Origin: Somniosus microcephalus
Lineage: Eukaryota
Reading direction: 5' to 3'
Length of the DNA: 64,000 nucleotides
NCBI GenBank assembly: GCA_052327205.1
Contig: CM126220.1
Location: 48,422,001 to 48,486,000, forward strand
Positions 12,225 through 52,322 of this stretch are shown piece by piece; position 1 is the stretch's first letter; every line of letters begins with the position of its first letter. Both the position numbers and the translations under genes were made by a program. The notes beneath the pieces are model-generated. The model saw only the letters and a list, made by a program, of their open reading frames with translations. It made no database searches and was not told where the DNA came from.

Positions 12225-12380
12225 GGTGGCGTGTGGGTCCAACAAAAACAGGGTCAAAGCGAAGGATTTTCAGAAAGTTTCGGAAGCAAGGTTGTTGGTG
12301 GCGAGGTGACAAGAATGAGGGAGCAAGTTTCAGAGGACGGGGTGTGGCAGAGCAGAGGGAGCAGGGTACAAGGAGTAACC
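12225..12380 (-). mobile_element. Old L2 LINE ORF2 C-terminal remnant (source of the adjacent minisatellite)
   Basis: Minus strand encodes SDTGLLLVPCSL...PLKLAP...FRNFLKILRFD, resembling the L2 end (RSSNSGLL.IP...LWNSLP...FK.LLKTYLFD) seen at 28430-33050. Confidence 0.6.
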
Positions 12381-14691
12381 CAGTATCAGAGGGGGCAGGG
12401 TACAAGGAGTAACCCGGTATCAGAGGGAGCAGGGTACAAGGAGTAACCACCGGTATCAGAGGAGAGGGAACAAGGGGAGAGGGAACAAGGAGTAACCTGG
12501 TATCAGAGGGAGCAGGGTACAAGGAGTAACCCAGTATCAGAGGAGAGGGAACAAGGAGTAACTCGGTATCAGAGAAGAGGGAACAAGGAGTAACCCCGGC
12601 ATCAGAGGGGAAGGTACAAGGAGTAACCCGGTATCAGAGGAGAGGGAACAAGGAGTAACCCGGTATCAGAGGAGAGGGAACAAGGAGTAACCTGGTATCA
12701 GAGGAGAGGGAACAAGGAGTAACCCCGGTATCAGAGGAGAGGGAACAAGGAGTAACCCCGGTATCAGAGGAGAGGGAACAAGGAGTAACCCCGGTATCAG
12801 AGGAGAGGGAACAAGGAGTAACCCCGGTATCAGAGGAGAGGGAACAAGGAGTAACCCGGTATCAGAGGAGAGGGAACAAGGAGTAACCCGGTATCAGAGG
12901 AGGGGGAACAAGGAGTAACCTGGTATCAGAGAAGAGGGAACAAGGAGTAACCCCGGTATCAGAGGAGAGGGAACAAGGAGTAACCCGGTATCAGAGGAGA
13001 GGGAACAAGGAGTAACCCGGTATCAGAGGAGAGGGAACAAGGAGTAACCCGGTATCAGAGGAAAGGGTACAAGGAGTAACCCGGTATCAGAGGAGAGGGA
13101 ACAAGGAGTAACCCGGTATCAGAGGAGAGGGAACAAGGGGAGAGGGAACAAGGAGTAACCCGGTATCAGAGGAGAGGGAACAAGGAGTAACCCGGTATCA
13201 GAGGAGAGGGAAGAAGGAGTAACCCGGTATCAGAGGAGAGGGAACAAGGAGTAACCCGGTATCAGAGGAGAGGGTACAAGTAGTAACCCTGGTATCAGAG
13301 GAGAGGGAACAAGGAGTAACCCGGTATCAGAGGAGAGGGTACAAGTAGTAACCCTGGTATCAGAGGAGAGGGAACAAGGAGTAACCCGGTATCAGAGGAG
13401 AGGGAACAAGGAGTAACCCCGGTATCAGAGGAGAGGGAACAAGGAGTAACCCGGTATCAGAGGAGAGGGAACAAGGAGTAACCCGGTATCAGAGGAGAGG
13501 GAACAAGGAGTAACCCGGTATCAGAGGAGAGGGAACAAGGAGTAACCCAGTATCAGAGGAGAGGGTACAAGGAGTAACCCCGGTATCAGAGGAGAGGGAA
13601 CAAGGAGTAACCTCGGTATCAGAGGAGAGGGAACAAGGAGTAACCCGGTATCAGAGGAGAGGGAACAAGGAGTAACCCCGGTATCAGAGGAGAGGGAACA
13701 AGGAGTAACCCAGTATCAGAGGAGAGGGTACAAGGAGTAACCCCGGTATCAGAGGAGAGGGAACAAGGAGTAACCCCGGTATCAGAGGAGAGGGAACAAG
13801 GAGTAACCCGGTATCAGAGGAGAGGGAACAAGGGGAGAGGGAACAAGGAGTAACCCGGTATCAGAGGAGAGGGAACAAGGAGTAACCCGGTATCAGAGGA
13901 GAGGGTACAAGGAGTAACCCGGTATCAGAGGAGAGGGAACAAGGAGTAACCCGGTATCAGAGGAGAGGGAACAAGGGGAGAGGGAACAAGGAGTAACCCG
14001 GTATCAGAGGAGAGGGAACAAGGAGTAACCCGGTATCAGAGGAGAGGGAAGAAGGAGTAACCCGGTGTCAGAGGAGAGGGAACAAGGAGTAACCCGGTGT
14101 CAGAGGAGAGGGTACAAGTAGTAACCCTGGTATCAGAGGAGAGGGAACAAGGAGTAACCCGGTATCAGAGGAGAGGGAACAAGGAGTAACCCGGTATCAG
14201 AGGAGAGGGAACAAGGAGTAACCCGATATCAGAGGAGAGGGAACAAGGAGTAACCCGGTATCAGAGGAGAGGGAACAAGGAGTAACCCGGTATCAGAGGA
14301 GAGGGAACAAGGAGTAACCCGGTATCAGAGGAGAGGGAACAAGGAGTAACCCGGTATCAGAGGAGAGGGTACAAGGAGTAACCCCGGTATCAGAGGAGAG
14401 GGAACAAGGAGTAATCCCGGTATCAGAGGAGAGGGAACAAGGAGTAACCCGGTATCGGAGGAGAGGGAACAAGGGGAGAGGGAACAAGGAGTAACCCGGT
14501 ATCAGAGGAGAGGGTACAAGGAGTAACCCGGTATCAGAGGAGACGGTACAAGGAGTAACCCGGTATCAGAGGAGAGGGAACAAGGGGAGAGTGAACAAGG
14601 AGTAACCCGGTATCAGAGGAGAGGGAACAAGGAGTAACCCGGTATCAGAGGAGAGGGTACAAGGAGTAACCCGGTATCAGAGGGAGCAGGG
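12355..14691 (+). repeat. ~32-33 bp minisatellite GGTATCAGAGGAGAGGGAACAAGGAGTAACCC, left part
   Basis: About 70 head-to-tail near-identical units with no unique spacers; occasional 14-bp sub-duplication GGGGAGAGGGAACAA. Confidence 0.97.
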
Positions 14692-14926
14692 TGATGCGCC
14701 ATCAATTACTCAAAAGACTGAGGTTAAGCGAGTAACAACCAGGCTTTTATTAACTAAAGAATGAAGGTCTAGTCTCGAGTGGTCGACCCGTCCAGAATAC
14801 TAAGGGACTGGGAGGTAGTCACTTATATACCTGGAATAGTGGGAGGAGTCAGCCGAGGCATGTCCAGACCTGTACCTAGTGGAATACACATACACATACA
14901 GACAGGTATAACAGTGGTTTACCACA
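14692..14926 (-). repeat. 3' LTR of Gypsy B
   Basis: Direct repeat of 21137-21371; TATA (GGTATATAAG) and AATAAA on the minus strand. Confidence 0.95.
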
Positions 14927-15450
14927 TTCACCCCTTGTTTAATAATGAGTCCGGCGGGGTGAAGTGTATTTAAAAGTTCGTGTATTGGAGTCTCTCCGGA
15001 GGTCTTGTCTGCCGCTGTGATCGACGTGGCGACGGCAGGGGTGGTGGAGCTTCTGGCGTCGCGTCCCGTGTAGGCTGGGGTACTGGAGTGTAGTCCTCGT
15101 GGGTGACGGTCCAAGGCGAGCCGGCTGCTGGGGTTGGATATCGGGCCGTGGGGGGGGTGGCAATGGGTAGTGGGTTACAGTGGTCCCCGAGAGTGTCGTG
15201 GGGGGGGGTGGTAATGGGTAGTGGGTTACAGCGGTCCCCGAGGGTGCGAGGTCTCGTATGGAGACTGTGTCCTCCCGCCCGTCCGGGTACGCAATGTAAG
15301 CGTACTGGGGGTTGGCGTGGAGGAGGTCAACCCTCTCGACCAGGGGGTCCGTTTTATTGGTCCTCACGTGTCTTCTCAGTAGTACCGGCCCTGGGGACGT
15401 CAGCCATGGCGGTAACGCTGTCCCCGATGTGGACTTCCTTGGGAAGACAA

Positions 15451-17360
15451 GGGATATACAAAAATGCATTAGAAATAAAAGAGGGGCTTTTGGCAGTTAC
15501 AAAAGACTAAAGACAGAAGAAGCCCTAGAGGAGTATAAAAAGTGCAGGGGCATACTTAAAAAAGAAATTAGGAGGGCGAGGAGGGGCCATGAAATAACAC
15601 TGGCGAGCAAAATAAAGGAAAATCCTAAGATGCTTTATAAGTATATTAAGGGCAAGAGGATAACCAGGGAAAGGGTAGGGCCCATTAGGGACCAAAGTGT
15701 AGAGCCAGAGGATGTAGGCGGGGTTTTAAATGAATTTTTTGCATCTGTGTTCACTATGGAGAAAGACGATGCAGACATAGAAATCGGGCAAGGGGACTGT
15801 GACATACTTGAACATATTAGCATCGAGAGGGAGGAGGTGCTAGCGGTTTTAGCGGGCCAAAAAGTGGATAAATCCCCAGGCCCGGACGAGATGTATCCCA
15901 GGCTGCTGTGGGAGGCAAGGGAGGAGATTGCAGGGGCTCTGACACTAATTTTCAGAACCTCTCTGGCCACAGGGGATGTACCAGAGGACTGGAGAACAGC
16001 TAACGTAGTACCATTATTCAAGAAGGGTAGCAGGGATAAACCAGGGAATTACAGGCCAGTGAGTCTAACATCTGTGGTGGGGAAATTATTGGAAAAAATT
16101 CTGAGGGACAAAATTAATCTCCACTTGGAGAGGCAAGGATTAATCGGGGATAGTCAGCATGGCTTTGTCAAGGGTAAATCATGTCTAACAAATCTGATCG
16201 AATTTTTCGAGGGGGTGACTAGTGGGGTGGATGAGGGAAATGCTGTGGATGTGGTTTACATGGACTTCAGTAAAGCTTTTGACAAAGTCCCGCATAGGAG
16301 ACTGGTCAAGAAGGTAAGAGCCCATGGGATCCAGGGTGCCTTGGCGCGTTGGATCCTAAACTGGCTGAGTGGCAGGAGGCAGAGGGTGATGGTCGAAGGT
16401 TGCTTTTGTGACTGGAAGCCTGTGTCCAGTGGGGTACCTCAGGGATCGGTGCTGGGTCCCTTATTGTTTGTGATCTACATAAATGATTTGGATGAGAATG
16501 TAAAAGGTATGATCAGTAAGTTCGCAGATGACACGAAAATTGGTGGGGTGGTAAATTGCGAGGAGGAAAGCCTCCGGCTACAGGACGATATAAACGGGTT
16601 GGTCAGATGGGCGGAAAAGTGGCAAATGGAATTTAACCCTGAAAAGTGCGAGGTGATGCATTTTGGACGGACAAATAAGGCAAGGGAATACACAATGAGT
16701 GGTAGGACCCTAGGAAGTACAGAGGGTCAGAGGGACCTTGGTGTACATGTACATAGATCCCTGAAGGCAGCGGAGCAGGTAGATAAGGTGGTTAAAAAGG
16801 CATATGGGATACTTGCCTTCATTAGCCGAGGCATAGAATATAAGAGCAGGGAGGTTATGATGGAGCTGTACAAAACGCTGGTGAGGCCACAGCTGGAGTA
16901 CTGTGTGCAGTTCTGGTCACCTCACTATAGGAAGGATGTGATTGCTTTGGAGAGGGTGCAGAGAAGATTCACCAAGATGTTACCTGGGATGGAGCGCCTC
17001 AGCTATGAAGAGAGGCTGGACAGGCTGGAGTTGTTTTCCTTGGAGCAGAGAAGGCTGAGGGGGGACCTGATTGAGGTGTACAAAATAATGAGGGGCATAG
17101 ATAGGGTAGATAAAGAGGAACTTTTCCCCTTAGTGGGGGGGTCAATAACAAGGGGGCATAGATTCAGGGTAAGGGGCAGGAGATTTAGAGGGGATTTGAG
17201 GAGGAACTTTTTCACCCAGAGGGTGGTTGGAATGTGGAACTCAATGCCTGAAAGGGTGGTGGAGGCAGGAACCCTCACAACATTCAAGAAGCATTTGGAT
17301 GAGCACTTGAAATGCCATTGCATACAAGGCTATGGACCAAATGCTGGAAAATGGGATTAG
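15451..17360 (+). pseudogene. CR1 ORF2 reverse transcriptase fragment (open frame, no endonuclease, no native start)
   Basis: KSPGPD, NYRPVSLTS, DFSKAFDKV, GVPQGSVLGP, KFADDTK; no internal stop over ~636 codons. Confidence 0.93.
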
Positions 17361-17446
17361 ACTGGACAGGGATGGATGGGCGGTGCAGACACGATGGGCC
17401 GAAGGGCCTCTTTCTGTGCTGTAAAACTCTATGACTCTATGACTCT
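15451..17446 (+). mobile_element. 5'-truncated CR1 LINE nested in the Gypsy B integrase; flanking AAGACAA repeat
   Basis: AAGACAA at 15444-15450 and 17447-17453; (ctctatga)n tail; removing it restores the integrase sequence HEKMF-VFPRKS. Confidence 0.95.
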
Positions 17447-17776
17447 AAGACAAACATTTTCTCGTGAGGGGTGGCATTGGTGGCAGTGCAGAGCAGTGAC
17501 CGAATCGAGTGGAGCGCATCGGGGAGCACCTCCTGCCAGCGGGAGGTCGGAAGGCCCCTAGACTTTAAGGCTAGTAGGGCGGCCTTCCAAACTGTTGCAT
17601 TCTCTCTTTCCACCTGTCCGTTCCCCCGGGGGTTGTAACTGGTGGTCCTGCTTGTGGCTATACCCCTAGCGAGCAGGTACTGGCGGAGTTCGTCGCTCAT
17701 AAACGATGAGCCCCGGTTGCTATGGATATAGCTGGGGAAACCGAACAGGGTGAAGAGGCTGTTCAGACATTTAATG

Positions 17777-17978
17777 GTGTGGAGATGCCGGAGTTGGACT
17801 GGGGTGGACAAATGTAAGAAATCACACAACACCAGGTTATAGTCCAACAGCTTTATTTGAAATCACAAGCTTTCGGGGCGCTGCTCCTTCTTCACCTGAA
17901 GAAGGAGCAGCGCCCCGAAAGCTTGTGATTTCAAATAAAGCTGTTGGACTATAACCTGGTGTTGTGTGATTTCTTACA
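17777..17978. mobile_element. Short Penelope-type inverted (foldback) insertion with a ~15-bp flanking duplication
   Basis: Perfect inverted arms 17811-17894 and 17897-17980; TTCAGACATTTAATG at 17762-17776 and 17979-17993; contains CTGAAGA...GAAA. Confidence 0.85.
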
Positions 17979-20900
17979 TTCAGACATTTAATGACTGTGG
18001 CACTGGTCATGTCCGGGCAGGGGATAGCGAACGGGAAATGGGAGTACTCGTCAATGATGTTGAGGAAGTACACATTGCGGTCGGAGGAGGGGAGAGGCCC
18101 TTTAAAATCGACGCTCAGGCGTTCGAAAGGGCGAGTGGCTTTTATCAGGTGGGCTCTGTCTGGTCTATAAAAGTGCGGTTTGCACTCAGCGCAGACTTGG
18201 CAGTTCTTGGTCATGGTCCTGACCTCCTCAATGGAGTAAGGCAGGTTGCGGGCCTTGATGAAGTGGAAGAACCTGGTGACCCCCGGGTGGCAGAGGTCAT
18301 TGTGGAGGGCCCTCAGCCTATCGATCTGCGCACTGGCGCAGGTGCCACGCGATAGGGCATCTGGGGGTTCATTGAGCTTCCCAGGCCGGTACAAGATCTC
18401 GTAATTGTAGGTGGAAAGTTCGATCCTCCACCTCAAGATCTTGTCATTTTTGATTTTGCCCCTCTGCTTGTTGTTGAACATAAAAGCAACTGAACGCTGG
18501 TCAGTGAGCAGGGTAAATCGTTTTCCGGCCAGTTAGTGCCTCCAATGACGCACAGCCTCCACAATAGCCTGGGCCTCCTTCTCGACCGCGGAGTGTCTGG
18601 TCTCCGGGCCCTGGAGGGTTCGTGAGAAGAATGCCACAGGTCTCCCCGCCTGATTAAGGGTGGCGGCCAGAGCGAAGTCGGACGCATCGCTTTCCACCTG
18701 GAAGGGGATGGATTCGTCCACTGCGTGCATGGTGGCTTTGGCAATGTCCTCCTTGATACGGTGGAAGGCCGAGCGGGCCTCTGCCATCAGGGGAAAAGAG
18801 GTGGATTTGATCAGCGGACGGGCTTTGTCTGCATAGTAGGGGACCCACTGGGCGTAGTAGGAAAAAAATCCTAGGCACCTCTTCAGAGCTTTTAGGCAGT
18901 GGGGCAGTGGGAGTTCCATAAGGGGACGCATCCGGTCCGGGTCGGGACCGATGACCCCGTGTTCCACAACACAGCCAAGGATGGCGAGGCGGTCTGTGCG
19001 GAATATGCACTTCTCCTTGTTATATGTCAGGTTCAGGAGTTGGGCGGTGCGGAGGAATTTCTCGAGGTTTGCGTCATGGTCCTGCAAGTCATGGCCGCAG
19101 ATGGTCACATTGTCTAGGTAAGGGAAAGTGGCCTGCAGCGCGTTTTGATCGACCATCCGGTCCATCTCCCTTTGGAAGGCGGAGACCCCGTTGGTAACGC
19201 CAAAGGGAACCCTAAGGAAGTGATAGAGGCGGCCGTTTGCCTCAAAAGCAGTATACTGGCGGTCTTCGGGGCGGATGGGGAGCTGGTGGTACGCTGATTT
19301 CAGGTCAATGGTCGGAAAGACGCGGTACTGCGCGATCTGGTTGACCATGTCAGCTATGCGGGGGAGTGGGTAGGCGTCCAGCAGGGTGTAGCGGTTTATT
19401 GTTTGGCTGTAGTCGATGACCAGGCGTTGTTTCTCGCCGGTCTTAACGACCACAACCTGGGCTCGCCAGGGGCTGGAGCTGCCCTCAATAATCCCCTCCT
19501 TCAGGAGCCGCTCCACTTCAGTTTTGATGAAAATCCTGTCCCCGGCACTGTATCGCCTGCTCTTTGTGGCGATGGGCTTACAGTCGGGGGTGAGGTTAGC
19601 AAACAGTAGCGGGGGTGGGACTCTGAGTGTGGAGAGGTTGCATCTGGTGCGCGGCGGGCAATTTGGAGGCTGCTGGCTGCAGACTGTGAGTGGGGGGAGG
19701 GGGCCACCGTACGCCATCGTAACGCTTTTGAGGTGGCACTGGAAATCCAACCCCAGTAGAACGGCAGCGCAAAGTTGGGGCAGGACCAGGAGTTTAAAAT
19801 TATTGAACACAGTCCCGTCTACTACTAGTGTCACCACGCAGTAGCTGCCAATGTCCGCTGACTGAGACTCGGCGGCCATAGAAATCCGCTGGTGCGCAGG
19901 CAGGACTGGGAGAGAGCAACGCCGCACCGTGTCGGGGTGGATGAAGCTCTCTGTGCTCCCGGAGTCAAAAAGGCAGTTTATTGCATGGCCGTTTACCTTA
20001 ACGTCCATTTTGGACCGAGCTAGTTGGTGCGGTCTCGTTTGGTCCAACGTAACAGAGGCCAGTGTAGGGGTCGGTGTGTCGCTGCGGGTATCAGATGGGG
20101 GGGGGTTGGCAGCCTGCTGCGTCCCGGCTGGTGTCCAAGATGGCGGCGTCCATGATTCCCATGTGGCTGGAGTCGTCCAAGATGGCTGCTGCTGCGGTGG
20201 TTCGCACATGGCTGGGGAGGCCCAAGATGGCGGCCCGCACGGCCCACACGCGGCGCTGTTGGGGGCCCAAGATGGCGGCTCGCACGGCCCACACGCGGCG
20301 CTGCTGGCGTTCGGGGTGGCTTTGGCCTTGCAGATGCTAGCGTAGTGTCCCTTTTTCCCGCAGCCCGAGCAGGTCGCATTCTTCGCCGGGCAGCGCGCTC
20401 TGGGGTGTTTGGCCTGGCCACAGAAGTAGCATTTCTGGCCTTGGGATACTGCTGTCTGGCTTTGGGACACTGCTGCAGTGGTTGGGCCGTTGTTGGGCTG
20501 TGGCTGGGGTGGCACGGTGCTATGGGGCTGTCCTACCGTGTCCCAGGTTGTCGTTCCCCGCGGCGTCCACGGTGCAGAGGACTAGGCATCCATGCCCCGG
20601 TAGGCTGCGTCCAGCGTTAGTGCGATTTCGGAGGCTTTGTCGAGGGTGAGGTCACTCTGCTCCAGCAGTCGCTGTCGGGTGTAGTTGGACCTGTGGCCCG
20701 CTACGAAGGCATCCCGGATCAGTTCCTCCGTGTACTTAGTGGACGTTACCACCTTACACCCACAGGCCCGGCCAAGCACGGACAGTGCTTGGAGGTATTC
20801 CTCAGTCGATTCCCCAGGTTGTTGCTTGCGACTCCCCAGGAGGTGCCTGGCGTAAACTTCGTTCACAGGGTGCGTGTACTGGGTCTTGAGGAGCTGGAGG

Positions 20901-21136
20901 GCGGCTGTGTACGAGGTCGCGTCCCGGATGACTGAGTACACTCGGTGGTTCACCTTGGAGATCAGGACAGACAGTTTGTTCGCATCCGTTACGACCGCAG
21001 TGGAGGCAGTCAGGAATGCCTCGAAGCACATGAGCCAGTGAGCAAACTTGGTGGAAGCGTCCGCTTCCCGACTGTCCAGGTCCAGGCATGCTGGTGTGAG
21101 GATCTTCTCCATTATAAAAAATTTAGTTAATAAAAT

Positions 21137-21371
21137 TGATGCGCCATCAATTACTCAAAAGACTGAGGTTAAGCGAGTAACAACCAAGCTTTTATTAACT
21201 AAAGAATGAAGGTCTAGTCTCGAGTGGTCGACCCGTCCAGAATACTAAGGGACTGGGAGGTAGTCACTTATATACCTGGAATAGTGGGAGGAGTCAGCTG
21301 AGGCATGTCCAGACCTGTACCTAGTGGAATACACATACACATACAGACAGGTATAACAGTGGTTTACCACA
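21137..21371 (-). repeat. 5' LTR of Gypsy B
   Basis: Direct repeat of 14692-14926; gag ATG lies only ~25 nt downstream. Confidence 0.95.
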
Positions 21372-28333: not shown

Positions 28334-28536
28334 AACTATTTTGTTTTCTCATCCTTGTTTTCACATCCCTCCATGGCCTCGCCCTCCCTTATCTCTATAA
28401 CCTCCTCCAGCCCTACAACCCTCCGAGATCTCTGTGCTCTTCAATTCTGGCCTCTTGCGCATCCCCGATTTGAATCGCTCCATCATTGGCGGCCGTGCCT
28501 TCAGCTGCTTTGGCCCTAATCTCTGGAACTCCCTTC

Positions 28537-28790
28537 TGTTAAGTCTGTGGGTTGTATTATAAATAATCACAGACTCCACTGTTAACAAAATAAAACACGT
28601 CTTTACTATTCAGAGGCTCGGGCGATTCCTGATCTAGTTAACGTATCACAACCCTTATATACTGGTGTGGTCACTATCGGTATTACAGTATACATGAGCC
28701 AATAAATAGTGCCACCCTAAAGTAGTGCTCTTAAAGGCGAACGGTCACATTCTATAGTTCCCTTAAAGGTAAACGGTTACATACACAACA
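28537..28790 (-). repeat. 3' LTR of element C
   Basis: 28629-28790 is identical to the 5' LTR; 28537-28628 is divergent. Confidence 0.93.
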
Positions 28791-29178
28791 CTCCTCCCTT
28801 CCTAGCTTATTACTTACAGAATCCCGTTAAACATACAATCTTCAATTTTATATAAACAGTTTGCAGATATACTCTCGATGGAGTCAACGTCATATAACAA
28901 TTTACAGATATACTCTCGATGGAGTCAACGTCATATAACTTCATGTTTAACATAACATAATAACATATATAACTTCATGTCAAAACAGATCACAGATTCA
29001 GTCTCTGTGGAAAACAGTTCATAGATTCAGTCTCTGTGGTGTAGTCGGTTCACATTGCTGGAGTGACTCATTCAATAGTCCTTCCATGGGTTTAACAGTT
29101 TGAACTTCCGAACTGAATTGGCTCCGTTCGGAGGGACCACGTGTGTGATCTGGTAGAGGTAATAATGGTTCAGATGGG

Positions 29179-31884
29179 TCATCTTCTGTTTCGACTTTTC
29201 CTTTTCTGCTTCTTGGAGACTCTCTGGGCTCCACTGTCAGCTGCCAGCTGCATGCGCAGTTCCTCCTTCTCTTCCTCCTTTTTCCGTAGTAGAGCCACCT
29301 TCTCCCGATGTTCCGTAGACTTTCGGTGCTCCTCCATGATTTCTGTATGGTGGGAGTCGAAGTTACAAGTTGGGCAGGACAGGACATAGTAATATTCGGA
29401 GTCGTCCTGAGCTAGGCCAGCGAGAGGGTCTTCTATGTCCTCCCTACCCAGCTGGACGTCAGCCAGCTTTTGTTCCAAATCCAGACATCTTTCCTGAAGA
29501 GACTTCTTCACGTGTTCCGCTTCCTCTAACTTTTTCTGGGCTTTCAGCAAGTTGTTTACTAATGACCTCATTTGTGATTTTAATACTTCAACTTCCTTTG
29601 GAGATTGATTGATCGGACTATTCAATCCCTCTACCGGAGCAGTTGTTTCAGCGTTCTGTTGTTCAACCTTGACATGAGTCAGCGTACTTTTGGTATCTAA
29701 GGGTTGCTCTGCTGCCATCTTCTCAGTCTGTGTTGCAACCTCGGCTATTTCAATAACTTTTGAGAGCTCCAAACCCTTCTCCTCTGACGATTTAAGCTCA
29801 TGTTCATGGCCCATTCTTACGGTCTCTGTGTTTCTTACAGTTCCCTTTTCTTCCACTGAAAAGATTTCCAGTTGCATCTGTTCTTCAAGTCGTTGGACCT
29901 CGGCCATTGCCGCTTCATATTTATTTTGTGTTTCCTTTAATAATTTAACGAGTTCTTGGACATCCTGTATTCCCTGTTCTGGTATGTCTTCCACCACTAA
30001 TTTTTTTCCTATGGATTTAATCCCTAACGATGAGTCAGCCTTGGCCTGAAGCTCATCAAACATTTCCTGCAGACTTTGTAATTCTTGCTTATGGTCAACC
30101 TTTAGTCGTTCATGTTCAACCTTTAGTTGCTCATATGCTTTCACTAACACGAGCTTTTCGGAAGTTGCCAAGTTAACCTCTTCCAGGATTGTAGTCCGAG
30201 CCTGTTCATACTGTTCTTTCAACTCGTTACACTCTGCTTGCAACAAGTCGTAGAGGTGAACTGGAATACCATCCTGACTTCTTGAAGATTCCTCTTCCTT
30301 TGGATCGTTCTGTGTATATTCTAGTTCCTGAACAGCCTCAGGGAGATGTGATTGGTACTTGGCCACGATGGCTCTATGGTCGCTCTCTGCTTGAGCGAGC
30401 TGTCTCTGTTGTCTTTCCAGGGACTCCCATTCGGTGTCCCAGAACTTTTTCACCTTTTCCATCTCTTGTAGGAGACGGGCACTCAACTGTTCTAATTGTC
30501 GTTGTACTTTGACATAACGTTGAGTTCTAGCCCGGTGTTCCTCCGTAATGCATATGTCTGTAGCTTGAACAGACTCAGAATTCTCTGTCTTTATGCACGC
30601 CATCGATTTCCCAACCTTAGTCCGTGAGTTCATGTTAATCTTGTTTTTCATACATAAGCTGGACTTATCGTCTTCCGGCTCGGAGTCTGAGCTGCTTGTC
30701 TGCACCGAGTCCTCACTCGTCATTGCTTGTCGGTAGTGCCATTCCATGTCTATTTTCTTGATCCACTCCCGTCCCAGAAGTGGTGGTCCTCCCTCAGGTA
30801 GTACGTACAGATACATTCGTGGGTGTTCTTTACCCCTATCTCTCACCTTGACTCGTATTTTTCCCAGGGGGTATACATGATGCCCCGTGTATGTCTGTAA
30901 TACGAATTTGGTATTTCTTAAGGGTATGTGAGAGAATAGCCGGTGATAGTCCTTTTGGTTGATGACGGATACAGCTGATCCCGTGTCCAGCTCCATTCGT
31001 ACTTGGACTCCCGCTATTTTTAGTGTGACCCAGATCAACTGTAGATCAGTTACTTTACCCACATGGTGGATTCTCAGACTATCCAGCTCCTGGCTGTTTG
31101 GGTCTGAGTCTGAATTTTGTTCGTCTGAACTCTTTTCAGCCACCTGATGCACCTTGTTGTACTTTCCTTGTGGTGGTGGCTTCCTTTGCTTGTTGGTCTT
31201 CTTTCCGGACCTGCATACCTTCGCGATGTGACCCAGTTTGCCACATTTCCTGCACTCTTGGTTCTTAAACCAGCACTGATTCTGGTCGTGCGTTGTCTTT
31301 CCACAACGGTAGCATTTGGGAGTGCTTGCTGTAATTTGGTCCACCCCGAGTGCCGCCGCCTTTAGCTGCATTTCCGCCGTCCCTTTCGCTGCGGCTTCGT
31401 GCGATGAAGCTATGAGGACAGCCCTGTCCAGTGTGAGGTCGTTTTCTTCCAGAAGTCGCTTCTGCGTTCCTTCTTTGGCCAAGCCGCATACGAACTTGTC
31501 CCGCAGCGCCTCTGTCAAATTCCCTCCAAACTGGCAGTATTTCGCTAGCTTACGCAGTTCGACTAAGTATTCCGCATTGCTTTCATCTTGCCTCTGGGTT
31601 CTGGCGTAAAATTTAAATCGTTCAGCCAGCATCAACGGTGTGGGGTTCAAGTGATCCTTCAACACTGTTACGATCTCTTCGAAGGTCTGGTCCACTGGTT
31701 TAACTGGTGCTATTAGATGTTTCAAAAGCCCGTATGTTTTTGCTCCCATCGAATTTAACAAAGTTATTGCCTTGTTGTCATCCTCAATTTCGTTGGCTAC
31801 GCAATATATTTCTATGCGTTCCACATACGTGGCCCAGTCTTCTATTTCTGCATTAAAGTCATTAATATTTCCTCGCTTAGGCAT
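29179..31884 (-). CDS. Gag-CCHC-protease fused to a ~500-aa coiled-coil and zinc-finger cargo (901 aa from ATG 31884)
   Basis: Uninterrupted ORF; MPKRGNINDF Gag homologous to elements A and D; CYRCGKTTHDQNQC; MELDTGSA; after GREWIKKIDMEW the sequence becomes E/K/Q/L-rich heptads, then CPTC-x12-H-x5-H. Confidence 0.88.
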   Translation of the reverse strand: MPKRGNINDFNAEIEDWATYVERIEIYCVANEIEDDNKAITLLNSMGAKTYGLLKHLIAPVKPVDQTFEEIVTVLKDHLNPTPLMLAERFKFYARTQRQDESNAEYLVELRKLAKYCQFGGNLTEALRDKFVCGLAKEGTQKRLLEENDLTLDRAVLIASSHEAAAKGTAEMQLKAAALGVDQITASTPKCYRCGKTTHDQNQCWFKNQECRKCGKLGHIAKVCRSGKKTNKQRKPPPQGKYNKVHQVAEKSSDEQNSDSDPNSQELDSLRIHHVGKVTDLQLIWVTLKIAGVQVRMELDTGSAVSVINQKDYHRLFSHIPLRNTKFVLQTYTGHHVYPLGKIRVKVRDRGKEHPRMYLYVLPEGGPPLLGREWIKKIDMEWHYRQAMTSEDSVQTSSSDSEPEDDKSSLCMKNKINMNSRTKVGKSMACIKTENSESVQATDICITEEHRARTQRYVKVQRQLEQLSARLLQEMEKVKKFWDTEWESLERQQRQLAQAESDHRAIVAKYQSHLPEAVQELEYTQNDPKEEESSRSQDGIPVHLYDLLQAECNELKEQYEQARTTILEEVNLATSEKLVLVKAYEQLKVEHERLKVDHKQELQSLQEMFDELQAKADSSLGIKSIGKKLVVEDIPEQGIQDVQELVKLLKETQNKYEAAMAEVQRLEEQMQLEIFSVEEKGTVRNTETVRMGHEHELKSSEEKGLELSKVIEIAEVATQTEKMAAEQPLDTKSTLTHVKVEQQNAETTAPVEGLNSPINQSPKEVEVLKSQMRSLVNNLLKAQKKLEEAEHVKKSLQERCLDLEQKLADVQLGREDIEDPLAGLAQDDSEYYYVLSCPTCNFDSHHTEIMEEHRKSTEHREKVALLRKKEEEKEELRMQLAADSGAQRVSKKQKRKSRNRR

Positions 31885-32724
31885 CTTCTTCTCTTTTTGA
31901 GAACAGTACAAGTATTACTTTACTTATTATTAATTTTCTTCTCTCTTCTTGAGAACACACCAGCCTTTCTGAAAAATCTTATTACTTTTCTGAAATTCTT
32001 AATAATTTCCAAGATGGCGGTTTCCCGCTTCTTCCTTCTTCTTCAGCGGTTTTCCCCGAAAAATGGCAGCTTTCCCGCGCTTCTCGCTCTCCCCGCCCAC
32101 TTCAATGGCGGTTTTCCCGCGCTTGGCGGTCTTCACCCGGTCCCCCGACGCCGTCTGTCAGCCCGAGTGCGGCCCTTATCTATAATGCGATCGCTGGATC
32201 GCGAAGCGGCTGCCGGCCCTTTATCTGTAGATCCGATCGCTCTCGCGGCTCTCGGCCCTTATCTGGAGATGCGATCGCTGGCTTGCAACGCCTCCCGCTC
32301 GGCTCTGGCTCCCCCGCTCGCGCGGCTCTCGGCTCTGACACTCTCGCGCCTACTCGCAGGCTCAGCGCTTCGTGGCAGCGGTTGCTGCACGGCTTCTCAC
32401 ATTGCCCGCGGTCCGGCTGTCACCCGACGCCGTTGGACCCGAATGCTTTGCCCTTCTCCTCCAAATACTTCTACCCCGTTTTTTTTTTTAAATTTATTTG
32501 TTTTAACTACTCACAGTCTCTTCGGCCGCCTTGTTTTAGGCTGATTGGCTCGCTCAAGATGTGGTAGCAGGGTAATCTGTGCCTGTTGCTGCCGCAGCTT
32601 TGCTGTTAATCTTCCAGCTTCCAGTAAGTACTATCCTTTTAGTAGACGGAGCCTCGTGTTTTCTTTTTGAAGCTCTCTGCTACTGGTTAGTCTTGCCGCA
32701 GGGTACGATCGGACTCGTCGCCAC

Positions 32725-32978
32725 TGTAAAGTCTGTAGGTTGTGCAGTAAATAACTTCAGAGACTTTAGAAGTACAAACAAAACAGGTCTTTACTATTCG
32801 GTGGTCTGGGCGATTTCTGATCTAGTTAACGTATCACAACCCTTATATACTGGTGTGGTCACTATCGGTATTACAGTATACATGAGCCAATAAATAGTGC
32901 CACCCTAAAGTAGTGCTCTTAAAGGCGAACGGTCACATTCTATAGTTCCCTTAAAGGTAAACGGTTACATACACAACA
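32725..32978 (-). repeat. 5' LTR of element C
   Basis: Adjacent to the PBS; ends TGTTGTGTATGTA...GACTTTACA (element sense) are shared with element D. Confidence 0.93.
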
Positions 32979-35900
32979 CCTTCCTAAACCTCTGCCTCTC
33001 CACTTCTCTCTCTTCCTTTAAGACGCTCCTTAAAACCTACCTCTTTGACCAAGCTTTTGGTCATCTGTCCTAATATCTCCTTATATGGCACAATGTCAAA
33101 TTTTGTTAGATAACGCTCCTGTGAAGCGCTATATAAATGCAAGCTGTAGTTGTTGTTGTTGTGTATGTATGTATTAATATATAAGTAATACGCCTTTCCT
33201 AACTTGGCTTGCTAAATCTTGATACAAATTTTAGAATTGTCTTGGATTGTAGTATTATTAGATTTAAACTCAAGCCCAGATAAAGGTTTTCTATCCCTCC
33301 GGGCATTTTATATATCTGGCAATAATGGGCCAAGTGATGAGATTTAATAAAGCAACAATTTTGCCAAACGTTTGCATGCTCGAGAGTGATGAATGATATT
33401 CCACTTTGGAAGCAAGTTCCTTTGTTAAAATGACAGCAATGTTGGATTAATTGCATCATGTGCTCTCCAAGAACTGTAATTCTGTATTTAGGGGCCAATG
33501 GGATTTAATGGCTACACTGTGTAACACTAACAGGAATTGCTTCATAATTCAGAGACTTTAGGTTTATATGTTGCTAATGTCTGACATGTGAACCTGCCTT
33601 TGTTATGAATGTTGTCCGTTCTCAGCCAGGATATTTGGTGGAGTGTTTCATGACTATGGAGAATCTTGCTGCATGGGGAAAAACTAAAGGTAAGTCCATT
33701 TACTCATTTCACTTTCCATTTCTGGCATTTGTGCAGAGGTCCAGGGTTTGGAGCTCAACTATTGCCCACGCTGCTCAAAGAAGCTGTGTGAGATAAGCAG
33801 TTTCATGTGTTGTGCTGTGTTGTGTGGTTAGGGGAGAGAAGACACAGAAATTTTAAAAAACCACATAAATCAAATGATGTTATCAGGGATCGATGTACAT
33901 ATTTAACGAAGGACCCCACTGATTTTCAGCAGGTATCCCTCTCACCTGCTCAGAAGAGCAAATTAAAACCGAAGACTGGTGAAATGAGAGGGTCGTCAGC
34001 GGGTAAGTCCCCTGGGTCTTTATAACTGCCTGCCCACCTGGTTTCCGTAAAGAAGATGGTGGTGGTTATTCTGTCAATCACTTCATTTTTCTTGTTAAGT
34101 CTTCACCGATAGAGGATCCCAATCAGTTTTTATAAAGAGGAAGTAGCAGTTTTATACTAGATCATCATAAGGCAGTCCTAATGGGGAACGATAACTTATG
34201 TCTTAACCCCTTTTACATGCAGGAACAAAACCACTAACCTCTTGACTTTAAGCAACTAAGGGATTTGACGTCTACAGCATTTATTTGAAAATGGTAAATT
34301 CAGAAGCTTTATCAGAATCTTTTAGAATCAAGACCAAGTCATTTTACCAACTTAACAAACAAAAGGAGGTGGAGGAGGATGGGTGGGGAGACCACAATAA
34401 ACTGACAACACAAACTCTATTATGAAATTATTAACTAAATATGGACCAAACATCTTCTTCAGATTAAATGGATTTATTCTAATGAGTCCAAGAAATAAAT
34501 AACATCTGTTCTTTCAATGACAAATTCTAGTAAAATTAATTCCTTATAATAATATAAAATTAATAACATATAAAGCAGAAAAATAGTACAGAAAGTATTT
34601 TATAATGCTTTTTATGTTCTTTAACTGCAGATCCAACTTCGGATTCAGCACAAATTCTCATTGGCCTGTGTCACACCATCGTAATTCTCATCTTGATGAA
34701 CCTGGATGAACAGCAAGGGCCCATAGTGCAGAACACCACCAGGGCACTGTATCTTGGATTCAACAAAATGAGGATGCAAAGCAAGAAAGATCAATTCCAT
34801 TCAGTGCCGCTGCCATGCCAATGTTAACACTCCTGCTTAGTCACTCACCGATTTGAAATACAGATGCTCTGGATAAATTGTGCAGCATGTTTCTCGAACG
34901 ATGGATGTTCTCAAATGATTAAATATAAGATCACAAGGATTTTATGACTTCCACAGTATGGGAAAGGAGAAACAGGATAGGGGGAGAGAAAAAGAGGAGA
35001 TTCGAACTACCCCACCCCCATCCAGTATTGTTACACCCATGACAGACTTGGGGTCAATGTGCGATTGTGGATGCTACTCGCATATTGTTGGTCTGTAACA
35101 ATTTGCAGTGGGGTCTTTTACACACAATTTGTGTTGTGAAGAATGTTCCTTTGCAACCTTTGTTTCCAATGTTGGCTGCTGGCTAAGGAGCCCAAGGACC
35201 AAGATCTCAGGAGCCCAGCCTTTAAAAGAACCTATGATTCAGGAACATAGATCCCATGTGCAATCAGTGGAGACAGTCTCCTCTCATATGGTGCGGGTGA
35301 TGGGAAAGTTGGAGAAATCTACAACTTGTATTTGCAATACAATGCAGGAGGGATGGCATAATAGCTAATGGCATAGTTAGCTGCAACTTCTGATGAAGTA
35401 TTTGCATAATATTTTTGATAATACAGAAAGACAGAGATAATCCCATCTTTAATATACAATCAGCATATTAAGTTGGCATAGACATCAGCGCAGTTACTTA
35501 AAAACTGCAGACTTGGGATGGGGTTGATTGGTGCATTGAGTCAGCACACTTATTTTTTTGCTTCAGGTAGTTGGATTAGAATCAAACCCAGACTGGTGGG
35601 CTGAAAGTCTGCTCTCTCTATCCTGGCTGTAGGAGGCGATAGGTTTGCAAAGTCTCAAACCAGTTCCTAGTGCGTATGCATCCACCGCATAAAATTACCC
35701 ATATTTCAGCATAAATTGGCACCAAAATGGCAATTTAACCCCGTTCACAAGAATGTTGATGCAGTACAGGGCACCGTAATAGATTAAACAACAGTGAGCG
35801 GAGTAAAGGGAGCATTAGTCTGAACTGGGTCATGCTGTACCTGATTTGAGAATGCTCCATGTTGATACTGGATACCAAAAGAAGTGGTTAATTCCCGAGC

Positions 35901-46520: not shown

Positions 46521-48238
46521 AGGTGTTTCAATAATGGGTAGGTTATGCTGAAATGAACATTGTTTAAAGCTACATTGTCCTCTGAGTGAGTCTTCATTCG
46601 TCAACTAGGCAGCCTCCAATTTCAAAAAAATAAAACTGGTAGTCTGAAATAAAAGTGAAAAAATGATGAAAATACACAGCTGGTTCATCTGTAAGGAGAA
46701 ATTTGAGGTTAACATTCCAACGCAGCTGGAAACTGAAAGATATACAAGCCCCTCCAGAGGAGTGATCAAAATAGAGAGATAGCAGAAATGTCAGCAATCC
46801 AAACTTTTGACTTTTGACTTTTACCTGTCACATAGGGGGGAATTTTTCAGGGGGTCAGCAGGGGCATTTGGAGGCGGGTCAGCTGGGAAAAAAATTTTTG
46901 ACAGTGGGTATGGAGCCCGCTGTCAACCCGTATTCACGCTAGTCTCCCAGATGTTGGGTCTGTCATCGTTGAACAGACCTGACACCAAGCGGCGAGGGAG
47001 GCAATTTACATCATTAGAGAGATTATAAAGAGGCAATTAACTAGTATTTTATGCTTAGCTTTAGATTTTTAGAGTTTGCCAACGGCTTCCCCACAGCTAG
47101 GGGATCACGTCAGGTAAGGAGGTCGGGTGTTGTGTCAGCATGTGATGATTTACTAACTTGACAGCTGCAAATGGTCTATAAAAGCTCCCATTTCATAGGT
47201 GTTCACTCTCCAAGATGAGAAGCTGTTTCTTACTGCATTTGGAAGACACAGTGCGCTTTATGCAGGTTGCAAGTGTTTGGAGCAAACTCTCTATCCAGTG
47301 TCACCTCATTGGAACAACCTCTCTCACCACTGACAGATCGCTTCTGTCATCTCAACCTCACCTGCCAGCTATTCCATCAGCATCGTTGCCCTTGAAAAAA
47401 TCTCACCTTGATCCTCAGAATCCCACCACGATCAGCCCCAACACCAGCAGCACCAGCAGCACCATGAAAAAAACACCAACCTTCTCCGCAATCAGCTGGT
47501 GCTGAACAGGACCGAGGGCATCAGCACCTGACCACATTGCTGCCTTGGAGGCCAGGGATGGCCTCACCATGGCCAGATTTACTTCACTTGACGCTGTACA
47601 CCCTGGCTGCCATATGATGAGCCAGGTTGGCACCACTCCACACTAACACCATAAAGCATCTCTACAATGCCCAAACCATTCTTTTCACACTCATGGCCAT
47701 TGCGGGGGATACTGTTATATCTCACCATTCACTGCAACTCACTAAGCCACTTCCAAAGGTGCACACAAATCTGTCCAAGAATGCAAATTGTTGACAATAA
47801 AGATTCCAATGTTTGACAGCACATTAACAGAAACTTCACATGAACATTAGCTAAAACACACAAGTGCCTACCCTTGTGTACTGTTAGTTGGTATGATTGG
47901 ACTATGATGAGGGTGAGTGTGAGGGGCGGATAGTGAGATGTGGAAGTTGTAAAGTCCGCGCCTCAATAATACACGGACTTCGGGAGAACAGTTTAACAGG
48001 TACTTTACTGAACAAGAGGCAGCTTGAAACTGAAACTACAGAAGCCTGCTAGGGCCTTTTATACAGGGGTGGTCACTGCCGGTACTGCAGTCTAAGACCA
48101 GTTATTCCCTTAAAGGTACATACACAACAATTCCTCCCCTTTTAGATAAACAGTACATAACATTCATTTAACAACTAAATAATAACTAATTACAATTACA
48201 ATTTTCTCAGTAATATATACATCAACTGAAATAGTCAT

Positions 48239-51200
48239 TTATAAGTTCAGTCTTTGAGGAGGCTTCCTGATCCGGACTGGATAGCGCCTTTCTCGAGTAT
48301 CCTGTTCTGGCGGTGGAGTCAATTCTGGCTCATTGTCATTGGTTGGTTCGTCAGCTTCCAATACCACTGCTTCTGAGGTAGACGCAATCTGTACTTCGGG
48401 CTCATTACCAGGTGCACATGCTTGTGGTACAGGTTTGGCTTGTTCCTGGGACTTTAGAATCTGGTCAGCATGGCATCTCACGATGCTCTCTCCAACGTCC
48501 ACTGTGTACATTAGTGGTCCCTGCTGTGTGCATATCGTGCCTGGCTGCCATTTTTCTGTTCGGTAGTCGCGGGCCAAGACTGGTTGCCCTATCTTGAAGC
48601 TCCTGGTTGGCTTCTCATTTATGTGTTGGAACTGCTTATCCTCAACATCTCATCTTATGTTTGGTTTGAGCAAATCCAAACGACATCTTAGTCTCCGGTT
48701 GAAAAACAGTACAGCTGGAGTTTGGTTGGTTACTGCATGTGTCGCATTCCGGTAAGCAAACAGGAAGTTATCCACCTTGTGTTGCAGTGGTATGTTGTCA
48801 TTATACATTGCCTTTATGGCCTTTTTAAAGGTCTGAACAAACCTCTCAGCCAATCCATTTGTGGCTGGATGATATGGGGCAGATGTGTAATGTTTCACCC
48901 CATTATTCTTCAGGAACCTCCGGAAATCCTCAGACACAAACTGTGGGCCATTGTCGGAACAGATCTGTTCTGGCAACCCATTCCTGGTGAAGATGGTCCT
49001 TAGGACTGCAATAGTTTTCTCTGTGGTGGTGGAGGACATTTTAATGACCTCTGGCCATTTTGAATGGGCGTCCACAGCGATTAGAAACATTGAGTCCATA
49101 AATGGACCAGCGAAATCAATGTGTACCCATTGCCATGGAGATGAGGGCCACTCCCATGGATGTAGCGGGGCCTGTGGTGGAGCGTTTTGGACCTTCTGGC
49201 ATCCTGTGCATCTCTTGGTCATATCCTCGATTTCTTTATCGATTCCCGGCCACCACACAAACACCCTGGCTAGGCTCTTCATTTTTACCCCTCCCAGATG
49301 ACCCTCGTGAAGCTCATTGAGTACTCTATCTCTCAATTTGGGTGGAATTACCACTCGGGATCCACACATCAAGGTTCCCCGGCACACTGACAGCTGTTCC
49401 CTCCTTGGCGAGAATGCTGGCAACAGTGAGTCGCCATATGCTGGCCATCCCTTCACCGTCAAATCATAGACCCGAGAGAGTGTTGGGTCATTTCGGGTTT
49501 CCTTCTCAATACTTGCGTTTGTAACAGGCAAACATTCGACTATGGTCGCATGGAATATCTCCACCGGGTCCACTGCAGGTGCTTCTTCCGCCGTAGGCAA
49601 CGGTAGGCGCGACAGCCCATCAGCATTTCCATGTTGTTTCGTACCTTTGTACTCTATGTCATACTGATGTGCCCCTAGAAAAAGTGACCATCTTTGCAGC
49701 CGTTGCGCCGTCATCACCGGAACGCCCTTCTTTGGGTTAAAAATTGAGACCAGGGGTTGATGATCAGTCAGTAGGGTGAATTTCTGCCCGTGCAGATAGT
49801 GATTGAACTTCTTCACCCCCCACACCAGGCTGAGGGCCTCCCTGTCAATCTGGGCGTAGTTACGCTCGGCTGAGGTTAGCGAGCGTGACGCAAAGGCTAT
49901 TGGCCTCTCTGAACCGTCACAGAATTTGTGTGACAGCACCACTCCAATGCCGTAAGGTGACGCATCACATGCCAACCGAATCGGTAGTGTTGGGTTGTAG
50001 TGGGCCAATACTTCTTTTGAAGTGATTTGGCATTTACATTCCTGAAAGGCACGCTTACACTCATCACTCCATTTCCATGTTACACCAGTTTGAAGGAGGG
50101 CGTTCAGTGGGTGCAGAATTGTAGATAAATTCGGCAAGAACTTATGGTAGTAGTTCACCAACCCGAGGAACGACCTCAGTTGCGACACATTTTCTGGTGC
50201 TGGAGCCTTGACTACAGCCTCAATCTTGTCCGGCGACTTATGCAACCCTTCCTCATCAATCATGTGGCCACAATACGAGATTTGTCTCCTGAAGAACTCG
50301 CATTTGGGACGGTTGGCTCGTAGCCCGTATTCCTGCAATCTCGTGAGCACCTGTTCCAGGTTGGCAAGGTGTTCATTGTCATTTTCGCCCGTGACCAAGA
50401 TGTTGTCCAAATAACACTGGGTCCCCGGGATCCCTTGCAGGACTTGTTCCATTGCCCTCTGCCACATAGCCGGGGCCGATGCTACCCCAAATACCAGTCG
50501 ATTGTACTGGTAAAGGCCTTTGTGAGTGTTTATCGTGAGGTATTTCCTAGATGCTTCTTCCACCTCCATTTGTAGATACGCTTGAGCCAGGTCAATCTTT
50601 GAAAAACATTTCCCTCCAGATAGTGAGGCGAAAATATCTTCTATCCGCGGAAGCGGATACTGTACTGTGTGCAGGACTGGGTTCACAGTCACCTTGAAGT
50701 CCCCACAGATGCGAACCTTCCTTGGCTCCCCAGGCATGCTGCTCAATGCTTTCTTCATTACAGGAACGATGGGTGTGGCCCACTTGCTCCAGTCCACCTT
50801 AGACAGCACCCCCGAATGCTCCAGACTCTCCAGTTCAGCTTCCACAGCTGGGCGTATCGCGTATGGCACTGGTCTGGCCTTGAAAAATTTTGGGGTTGCG
50901 TTATCCTCAATCTTTATGGTTGCCTTTACTCCTTTTAGAGTCCCAAGTCCTTGTTGGAACACCTCTTCCGCGTCAGATAGAATTTGTGACAGACGTCCAG
51001 GTGCGACGTCATCATCTTTTTTGTCAGTCACAGTTAGTGCCAGAATGGAATGCCAATCCAATTGTAGTCTTCGGATCCATTCACGTCCCAATAATGGTGG
51101 TCCTCCATCTCGTAGTATATACATGTATAGTTTCTGTGTTTCCTTTCCGTTATATTCAACTGGCACCCTTATTTTTCCTCTGGGGTAGACCTTTTGCCCC

Positions 51201-52192: not shown

Positions 52193-52204
52193 CTTGGGCA
52201 TTTT

Positions 52205-52322
52205 AAAATGGCGCCTCCCGTGCTTTTGCTTCTTCCCCAATGGAATAAAATGGCGCCTCCCGCGCTTTTGCTTCTTCCCCAATGGGATAAAATGGCGCCT
52301 CCCGCACTTTTGCTTCTTCCCC
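52205..52322. repeat. Three ~43-bp tandem repeats in the Gypsy D leader
   Basis: aaaatggcgcctcccg(c/t)(g/a)cttttgcttcttcccc x3; two related copies in the element A leader (4960-5035). Confidence 0.9.

Follow-up and report, generated by a model that had tools for sequence, protein, structure and literature searches.

Defective oncogene-transducing retroviruses have lost pol, depend on an env-bearing helper and join Gag in frame to host sequence that had been spliced. Among LTR elements, the animal cases of LTR-mediated retroposition cited here from Tan et al. 2016 (PMC5131818) comprise partial spliced host RNAs within an LTR element, with microhomology where templates switch, multiple parent genes, repeat transposition and a sense and in-frame bias, all in single-copy or few-copy young retrocopies. 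Maize Bs1, as summarized in PMC5131818 and PMC13317346, is a non-autonomous LTR element whose hybrid ORF combines three host genes; it is built of colinear mRNA pieces and present in 1–5 copies that share switch points. Genomic copies with back-splice junctions are described as circRNA-derived pseudogenes (Dong et al. 2016, PMC4897178), among them 33 mouse circRFWD2 copies enriched for flanking LTR sequence; the sections cited here leave the mechanism open.

The element reported here shares the listed features of these animal cases and of Bs1, but it belongs to families with thousands of candidate copies, its pol is cleanly replaced, its Gag–protease is under purifying selection and three donors of its lineage are apparently back-spliced; unlike Bs1, the lineage is vertebrate, of very high copy number and still adding and swapping modules. 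Unlike the circRNA-derived pseudogenes, it holds a circle in frame inside an intact element. The preliminary description had drawn an analogy to oncogene-transducing retroviruses, which holds for non-autonomous uptake of host RNA, in-frame fusion to Gag and loss of pol, but fails in other respects: the backbone is Gypsy-type without env, the element is a germline transposon with a multi-gene mosaic, and its cargo residues are near-neutral rather than conserved, with ω not different from 1. Among the papers searched we found no description of the lineage, and nothing at such scale or with one-turn captures.

The window, a 64,000-nt stretch of Somniosus microcephalus DNA, carries the element on its minus strand with the TG...CA LTRs, target-site duplication (TSD), primer-binding site (PBS) and polypurine tract of a Ty3/Gypsy LTR retrotransposon. 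Sequence inspection places the unstranded TSD CCTTC at 32979..32983 (5′ side) and 28532..28536 (3′ side). Between these lie a 254-nt 5′ LTR (32725..32978; 96–99.6% identity to the 3′ LTRs of other family copies), a PBS-like TGGCGACGAG one base inside it (32714..32723), an 840-nt leader with one upstream ATG (31885..32724), a single Gag–protease–cargo ORF, a 3′ UTR (28946..29187) and a polypurine tract (28791..28806) abutting a 254-nt 3′ LTR (28537..28790). Sister family S and the two pol-bearing elements nearby have the same PBS, which we take to match tRNA-Ser. The cis signals first reported around the ORF are thus all present, although the LTRs differ from each other: they agree at positions 1–162, and the final ~92 nt on the U5 side (28537–28628 in the 3′ LTR, from another relative) diverge, by ~23% over a 110-nt comparison, with this 3′ LTR end seen in 0 of 29 other copies. 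The single open frame is confirmed as 901 codons from an ATG at 31884 (29179..31884), within a stop-to-stop frame of 911 aa (29179–31914).

Translation, Pfam and alignment define Gag at 31036..31884, with two CCHC knuckles (~31213–31314), followed by an aspartic protease at 30739..31035 (translation and Pfam; DTG motif intact at ~30979–30987). As had been proposed, this part is homologous to the window's pol-bearing elements and the cargo starts after their GREWI motif: identity is 57% over 396 aa to the element at 48650–52339, and the likeness stops just past GREWI. Pfam returned no match to RT, RNase H or integrase in the window element, which therefore does not encode what an autonomous Ty3/Gypsy element does; a pol-bearing relative (P0002) has the order PR-RT-RH-IN without env, whereas only Gag and PR remain here. 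Two CCHC arrays are described for the Mag clade of Ty3/Gypsy (PMC2577118), a feature not unique to Mag, and the pol-bearing relatives also resemble that clade in their one gag-pol frame of order PR-RT-RH-IN; the window element itself lacks RT and integrase, and its placement as Mag-like is tentative.

The cargo consists of spliced host RNA, its donors being STK10, an ANKRD24-like gene, optineurin and a gene with a jazz-type zinc finger. An STK10 exon circle remnant (30398..30718, 76–84% identity to host exons) consists of exon b (30718–30590 and 30589–30540), exon d (30544–30460) and exon e (30451–30398). The final ~16 nt of ANKRD24-like exon n+1 then precede the entire 66-nt exon n+2 (30328..30393, 88% identity to host), which joins at 30327..30328, donor to upstream acceptor, to exon n, a giant exon of which the initial 512 nt are present (29795..30327, 81% identity, with a 21-nt in-frame duplication). 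An optineurin coiled-coil piece follows (29434..29805, 68% aa identity to shark optineurin residues 253–384), and the frame ends, as first described, in a zinc finger and basic tail (29182..29433), the jazz/matrin-type finger reading C-x2-C-x12-H-x5-H at ~29308–29376. The return junction from the zinc-finger piece to STK10 exon a breaks the frame, and the ORF ends ~90 codons early; the 3′ UTR holds untranslated STK10 relics (exon a, 29187–29162; start of exon b, 29159–29067), downstream of exon e as in a circle, followed by a remnant of the 3′ end of pol (29006–28946).

Protein searches returned named host genes, in keeping with the original view of the cargo as host-like; a known accessory ORF of a Gypsy family was rejected, as Pfam gave nothing real for the cargo. 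No Gag–cargo protein of another species was among the protein matches, a weak negative with the best 8,000 word-sharing candidates scored. The initial 105 cargo residues had no match among 1.84 billion representatives and were traced to STK10 via sister families. EVI5 exons were located in this genome; the optineurin gene was not. DNAJC21 is a candidate donor of the zinc finger. Two loci did not bear this out: C17 lacks a match and seems to be a different DnaJ gene, and C1 has DnaJ exons 1–2 with no matching finger within 100 kb; a PDB search gave weak finger matches only. The heptad periodicity first described for the cargo was compared with 300 shuffles, of which 0 reached the observed value for optineurin, 6 for STK10, 19 for the ANKRD24-like piece (marginal) and 153 for the Gag control. 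Coiled coil is not the rule, being ruled out as a general property by sister families that carry Ig domains.

Sister families show where the cargo came from. In the simplest, RT-RNaseH-IN is swapped for a single complete turn of an STK10 exon circle (1,245 nt, 415 codons, stop-free in frame); its copy L068 (family S) runs from mid-exon b through c, d, e, a and b to the same 14 nt, at 96–100% identity to host. The e-to-a joint falls exactly on a GT donor and an AG acceptor, and the entry site has 10 nt in common with the pol-bearing relative L100(-). The ANKRD24-like joint from donor n+2 to acceptor n occurs in each of families A, B and C, and its 1,743-nt circle is likewise stop-free. Family C has gained one turn of an EVI5 circle, starting at DLEIQ, continuing at HK and ending at QQKIA; annotated isoforms among the EVI5 proteins compared differ just before HK and just after LEIQ, so both mark exon ends, as taken from other species' isoforms rather than from this genome's DNA. 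Exact donor-to-upstream-acceptor joints are therefore seen on host DNA for STK10 and the ANKRD24-like gene and via isoform ends for EVI5, two inserts are exactly one turn long, and microhomology at switch points spans the 10 nt of the pol-to-STK10 entry and short shared words elsewhere (scored without a null model). Inserts of exactly one turn that enter and leave at one site suggest template switching by RT, and the joints indicate that at least part of the donors were probably back-spliced RNAs, which modifies the earlier proposal of transduced host mRNA: host RNA within a non-autonomous element stands, plain mRNA as its only form does not. The optineurin piece is colinear, so not every capture requires a circle.

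Scrambled exons could also arise by trans-splicing, from an earlier tandem duplication of exons, or if template switches on linear mRNA had landed on exon ends by chance. Exon ends carry CAG/G-like words, and the ANKRD24-like joint has a 4-nt microhomology (CAG/G) on linear mRNA, so that this junction alone could be a template switch; tandem-repeat linear RNA would equally permit entry and exit at one motif, and PMC4897178, in the part cited here, cautions about other routes to non-colinear junctions. We consider these origins unlikely, given donor-to-upstream-acceptor joints in three independent genes, only 2 nt (AG) in common at the STK10 joint on linear mRNA and two inserts of exactly one turn; each exon is also single in the fetched host stretches of 140 kb and 60 kb, where no tandem exon duplication was seen.

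The window element is one member of a young family. A cargo search of the genome gave 5,072 candidates, and a rough density estimate suggests tens of thousands of cargo elements. The ORF is kept in 22 of 30 fetched loci (stops in the other 8), 5-bp TSDs flank 19 of 20 other copies (18 distinct flanks) and the LTR pair is identical in 14 of 19 measurable copies. Copies with shared junctions have thus transposed secondarily, and the STK10 and ANKRD24-like exons are intronless and joined at splice sites, as in LTR-mediated retrocopies. The search for further copies thereby bore out the preliminary description, and the situation that would have counted against it, a cargo confined to one locus, was not found: the cargo occurs in many copies, and its frame is open in most of them. 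An assembly chimera was rejected, with many copies on many contigs and reads along the entire length. Public RNA reads from run X7 are sense-biased and cover 30 of 30 bins, and those from X8 are weakly strand-biased. Most of these reads are 90–99% alike and their label is organism B, so that what they show is a close subfamily rather than the window locus. Element transcripts carry the same back-splice junctions as host circles would.

The element has transposed in this form, probably with a helper, as first suggested, but the window's own pol-bearing copies, each of the three confirmed to carry premature stops, are not the closest helpers: their proteases form a separate clade in a midpoint-rooted tree of one short 124-aa region, built without a clade test. 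The helper candidate is only 72–82% identical and itself carries stops.

Cargo residues drift near-neutrally while stop codons are purged. The Gag–protease is conserved (ω 0.235, LRT 254), whereas dN/dS across copies, the check originally proposed for the cargo, gave ω not different from 1: 0.90 for STK10 (p 0.65; codon tree lacking families A and C), 0.75 for the ANKRD24-like piece (p 0.27) and 0.69 for optineurin (p 0.17). Between host exons and the window copy we counted 164 substitutions in 296 codons and 0 stops, against a mean of 7.1 in neutral simulation (P(0)=0.0015), a test biased because the window copy was noticed for its openness; sister loci, picked for long frames, are a further biased sample. 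In other copies, 54 private cargo mutations include 4 stops. Between-family indels inside the ORF all keep the frame, and all 5 length variants listed from public reads sit outside it, in UTRs. A neutral passenger kept open by luck and youth would suit ω near 1, in-frame circles that were stop-free at capture and the stops already present in 8 of the 30 loci, yet the missing stops and the placement of indels and length variants make this very improbable.

A cargo of the same origin might instead work as protein, a hydrophilic rod with a basic tail taking over non-catalytic Pol jobs such as nuclear import or RNA binding (tail) or protease dimerisation (coiled coils). Each family whose cargo was inspected has a basic tail at its end, arrived at by different routes: the integrase tail in S, a poly-arginine variant in the Ig families and, in A, B and C, a lysine/arginine stretch that follows the zinc finger. 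In these last three families the finger keeps its C and H ligands, and pairwise cargo dN/dS between A and B is 0.55, or 0.79 once transitions are corrected for. Long helices dominate a predicted structure of the cargo, a low-confidence single-sequence model (mean pLDDT 58.6). With codon-model ω of three cargo pieces not different from 1, donors that range as far as Ig domains, the integrase tail lost in A, B and C and a single candidate precedent for protease dimerisation in the literature searched, we regard this reading as possible but somewhat doubtful. Less probable still is a benefit at the RNA or decoy level, blunting small-RNA silencing or disturbing autophagy or innate sensing via host domains such as that of optineurin. 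Drosophila telomeric elements with captured host fragments do have higher copy number in the account cited here (PMC13534243), and an intermediate copy, L100(+), holds optineurin residues 131–384; the window copy, however, has lost the N-terminal optineurin part and drifted 18% from host DNA, no common pathway could be shown among the donors, and an RNA-level effect needs no open frame.

The explanation we favour, at a probability of roughly three in four, is that pol was replaced by host RNA, part of it circular, copied during reverse transcription, and that this translated spacer is mobilised by a relative, making the element a non-autonomous, Mag-like Ty3/Gypsy member of a large, recently active lineage. 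RT would use a short microhomology to move from element RNA to a host circular RNA packaged with it, read through the back-splice junction and switch back; in these putative particle and RNase H steps, entry and exit would fall at one site because after one turn the RNase-H-degraded circle gives no further template. The founding event would have exchanged RT-RNaseH-IN for one turn of the STK10 circle, and later switches would have added the zinc-finger piece, optineurin and a partial ANKRD24-like circle and, in sisters, the EVI5 circle, Ig domains and others (the lineage also has BAZ1A-like and KMT2A-like donors), with deletions and between-family recombination trimming and reshuffling the pieces. 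For its spread the element would supply its own Gag and protease and borrow RT and integrase from a pol-bearing relative, a putative helper with the same PBS and a related PPT and LTR. That the cargo serves as a translated spacer in pol's place has, to our minds, about even odds: selection would act on translation reaching near the 3′ end and not on the host proteins' functions, the likely reason being avoidance of decay of RNA with a long untranslated tail.

This account would offer a concrete mechanism for the entry of circular RNA into genomes, the question left open in the cited sections of PMC4897178, and shows that LTR transduction in a vertebrate can grow to the size of a major repeat lineage instead of being a rare accident. 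It also separates two types of selection, one that keeps residues in Gag–protease and one that in the cargo keeps the frame open and nothing more. A practical consequence is that STK10, optineurin, EVI5 and ANKRD24-like exons, present in thousands of nearly identical copies, will inflate gene-family counts, cause RNA reads to be mis-mapped and mimic circRNA calls in this animal group. More tentatively, circular RNAs may be the preferred substrate of LTR transduction, since a single microhomology suffices for entering and leaving the template, and circles that stay in frame carry no stops, with cargo and basic tail standing in for Pol. If so, the lineage would be a genome-scale exon-shuffling engine, with tens of thousands of expressed Gag–protease fusions sampling host domains, and would both preserve germline circRNAs as a fossil record and make up a real part of the genome's size.

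The element at 28537–32978 (minus strand) bears every cis signal originally described for it (TG...CA LTRs of 254 nt, the TSD CCTTC, a PBS and a PPT), and its single open frame of 901 codons was borne out. Gag, with its two CCHC knuckles, and a protease that looks intact share 57% identity over 396 aa with a pol-bearing element at 48650–52339; the likeness ends at the start of RT, and no Pfam match to RT, RNase H or integrase was found in the window element. As also noted before, all three pol-bearing Gypsy copies of the window carry premature stops. Over its final ~92 nt (28537–28628, U5 side) the 3' LTR differs from that of each of 29 other copies examined and is only ~77% like the 5' LTR of the same element; no fetched family exceeds 79% here, which points to strand transfer or to conversion by a different relative. 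A single-sequence structural model predicts five long helices at low confidence and adds little. Elsewhere in the window, a pol-bearing Gypsy (47948–52939, LTRs 98% identical) has one premature stop, late in integrase. A second Gypsy family (14692–21371, LTRs 99% identical) holds a LINE-type RT frame of 686 aa on the opposite strand (15300–17360) and a perfect 84-nt inverted repeat (17811–17980), its LTR adjoining a long array of 32–34-nt tandem repeats (12300–14700).

Protein searches with the cargo confirm the proposed host origin, identifying an ANKRD24-like gene (annotated ankycorbin or ANKRD24-like) and optineurin; the remaining donors emerged through sister families. Twelve of the 14 loci fetched by ANKRD24 search are cargo elements and one is a host paralogue; families B and C have frames of 984 and 1,123 aa, C with an extra EVI5 piece. 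The PKK-domain search, whose 20 loci were chosen for long frames, gave 18 Gag-protease-STK10 fusions, one Gag-protease whose cargo was not printed and one processed STK10 copy; Pfam PKK, PDB chains and the host locus form the basis of the STK10 assignment. An intronless 3' coding part of STK10 (L069, G000:C3:354.658 Mb; 89–98% protein identity to host exons) has no LTR pair. The zinc-finger tail is of jazz type, weak in families B and C and above cut-off in other long-frame loci. We take DNAJC21 to be its candidate donor; candidate host loci and PDB gave no confirmation. Other cargo families contain Ig I-set domains and further pieces that are presumably BAZ1A and KMT2A. Four loci (L055, L061, L062 and L065) have an insert with a putative taspase-1 cleavage-like motif, preceded by a C2HC finger; around this motif we assume a resemblance to KMT2A.

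Several junctions have the anatomy of back-spliced exons. The host ANKRD24-like gene has an AG ahead of exon n and a GT where exon n+1 ends, and its 66-nt exon n+2 is flanked by AG and GT; in families A, B and C the sequence runs from the end of n+1 through the whole of n+2 to the first base of n (97% identity to host in B, 81–88% in the window copy). Host STK10 exons a–e total 1,245 nt, and L068, of the simplest family (S), enters mid-exon b, continues through c, d and e to a, and exits in b at the 14 nt of its entry, with 96–100% identity to host. The e-to-a joint falls at the exact splice donor and acceptor, which on linear mRNA have AG alone in common. The entry word shares 10 nt with the RT start of a relative that bears pol; at the exit the sequence returns to the integrase tail. 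The two circles verified on DNA (STK10, ANKRD24-like) have lengths divisible by three and contain no stop. The EVI5 insert shows a circular permutation where isoforms place exon ends, and makes one turn, less an internal deletion; the BAZ1A-like piece, of 462 nt, was inserted cleanly, with 3 nt duplicated. The window copy still has STK10 exons b, d and e in the ORF, with a and b in the 3' UTR, and so derives from the S type. Intermediates (L100(+), L039) have STK10, optineurin and finger without the ANKRD24-like piece; the optineurin piece, being colinear, may come from linear mRNA. At L100:1733–3500 (+) it spans residues 131–384, among them a stretch that we take to be the LC3-interacting motif and that later families lost. 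The intron between STK10 exons c and d begins GC, not GT, at L088.

The lineage is mobile, as predicted, and abundant. In this 6.45-Gb genome a 1,950-nt cargo query returned 5,072 candidates, and the 40 scored were all full length, near-identical and spread over many contigs. With 5' ends fetched for 20 of 29 other copies (one not recovered), 19 have a perfect 5-bp TSD, in 18 distinct flanks, and 14 of 19 LTR pairs are identical (7 mismatches in ~4,800 nt overall); these copies are those nearest to the query, so the youth of the family is overstated. The whole frame is kept in 22 of 30 fetched loci, window locus included, with stops or shifts in eight. Four cargo elements in the 480 kb fetched for host genes scale to ~54,000 (95% range 15,000–138,000), a coarse estimate based on five gene regions. 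Related genome searches gave 27,337, 16,571 and 21,271 candidates, which are not copy counts, and the best protein matches are sharks and rays. Family A copies also lie head-to-tail with one LTR in common (L020; G000:C5 near 138.42 and 138.55 Mb), neighbouring matches being ~4.2 kb apart. At L041:1–1290, a pol-bearing element whose LTR is related (73%) stops a few bases short of a family B element, and at L053 a pol piece adjoins the family B copy; shared target preference or linked integration could account for both. Insertions in or beside two donor genes (L036–L037, ANKRD24-like intron; L100, STK10 region) are probably chance, given the density of cargo elements.

Runs labelled as organisms A, B and C (three studies) contain 48–71% of sampled words. 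Reads from two RNA runs of organism B span all 30 bins. In X7 the orientation that sense RNA would have in most stranded libraries is favoured roughly tenfold, in X8 weakly; because most reads are 90–99% alike to the element, the transcribed source is a close subfamily. Within gag, 43 reads from both runs skip 315 nt (31337–31651; 105 codons, in frame), a gap with no canonical splice sites at its ends and found in neither of two contig sets.

Gag-protease is conserved (omega 0.235; 15 sequences, 373 codons; LRT 254 against 1). In the cargo, which the preliminary description envisaged as possibly released as a separate protein, codon models give omega 0.90 for STK10 (12 sequences, without families A and C), 0.75 for ANKRD24-like (six) and 0.69 for optineurin (five), none different from 1. 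A protein role for the rod and basic tail is possible but doubtful. Stops, by comparison with expectation, are purged. The 164 substitutions separating host exons from the window copy over 296 codons include none, against 7.1 expected by simulation (3 of 2,000 runs without any), and we consider an open frame by drift highly improbable. Among private cargo mutations of other copies, 4 of 54 are stops. Indels between A, B and C within the ORF all keep frame, and all five length variants listed from public reads lie in UTRs. One joint departs from this pattern: where the finger piece gives way again to STK10 exon a, the frame is lost and a new stop arises after a basic tail. Between A and B, synonymous distance in gag is ~2x that in cargo, and the L039 protease groups with a pol-bearing copy, so that cargo moves between gag backgrounds.

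We propose that host circles would be co-packaged with element RNA, that RT would switch template at microhomologies and that, once round, it would be forced back, the circle having been consumed by RNase H. A relative such as L100(-) could provide Pol in trans; its gag-protease is 82% alike to that of S, with which it also has pol tail, PPT and LTR (77–80%) in common. In searches of published papers rather than repeat databases, no description was found of this lineage, of a one-turn circle in place of pol or of comparable copy numbers, although supplementary tables of PMC5131818 and PMC4897178 could hold closer cases. The lineage works like LTR-mediated retroposition (PMC5131818) and maize Bs1 (PMC5131818, PMC13317346), and overlaps with circRNA-derived pseudogenes (PMC4897178). 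A decoy or camouflage role of the cargo seems unlikely. To explain the open frame we favour, at a probability of about 0.5, a putative translated spacer protecting the RNA over the protein, decoy and drift readings.
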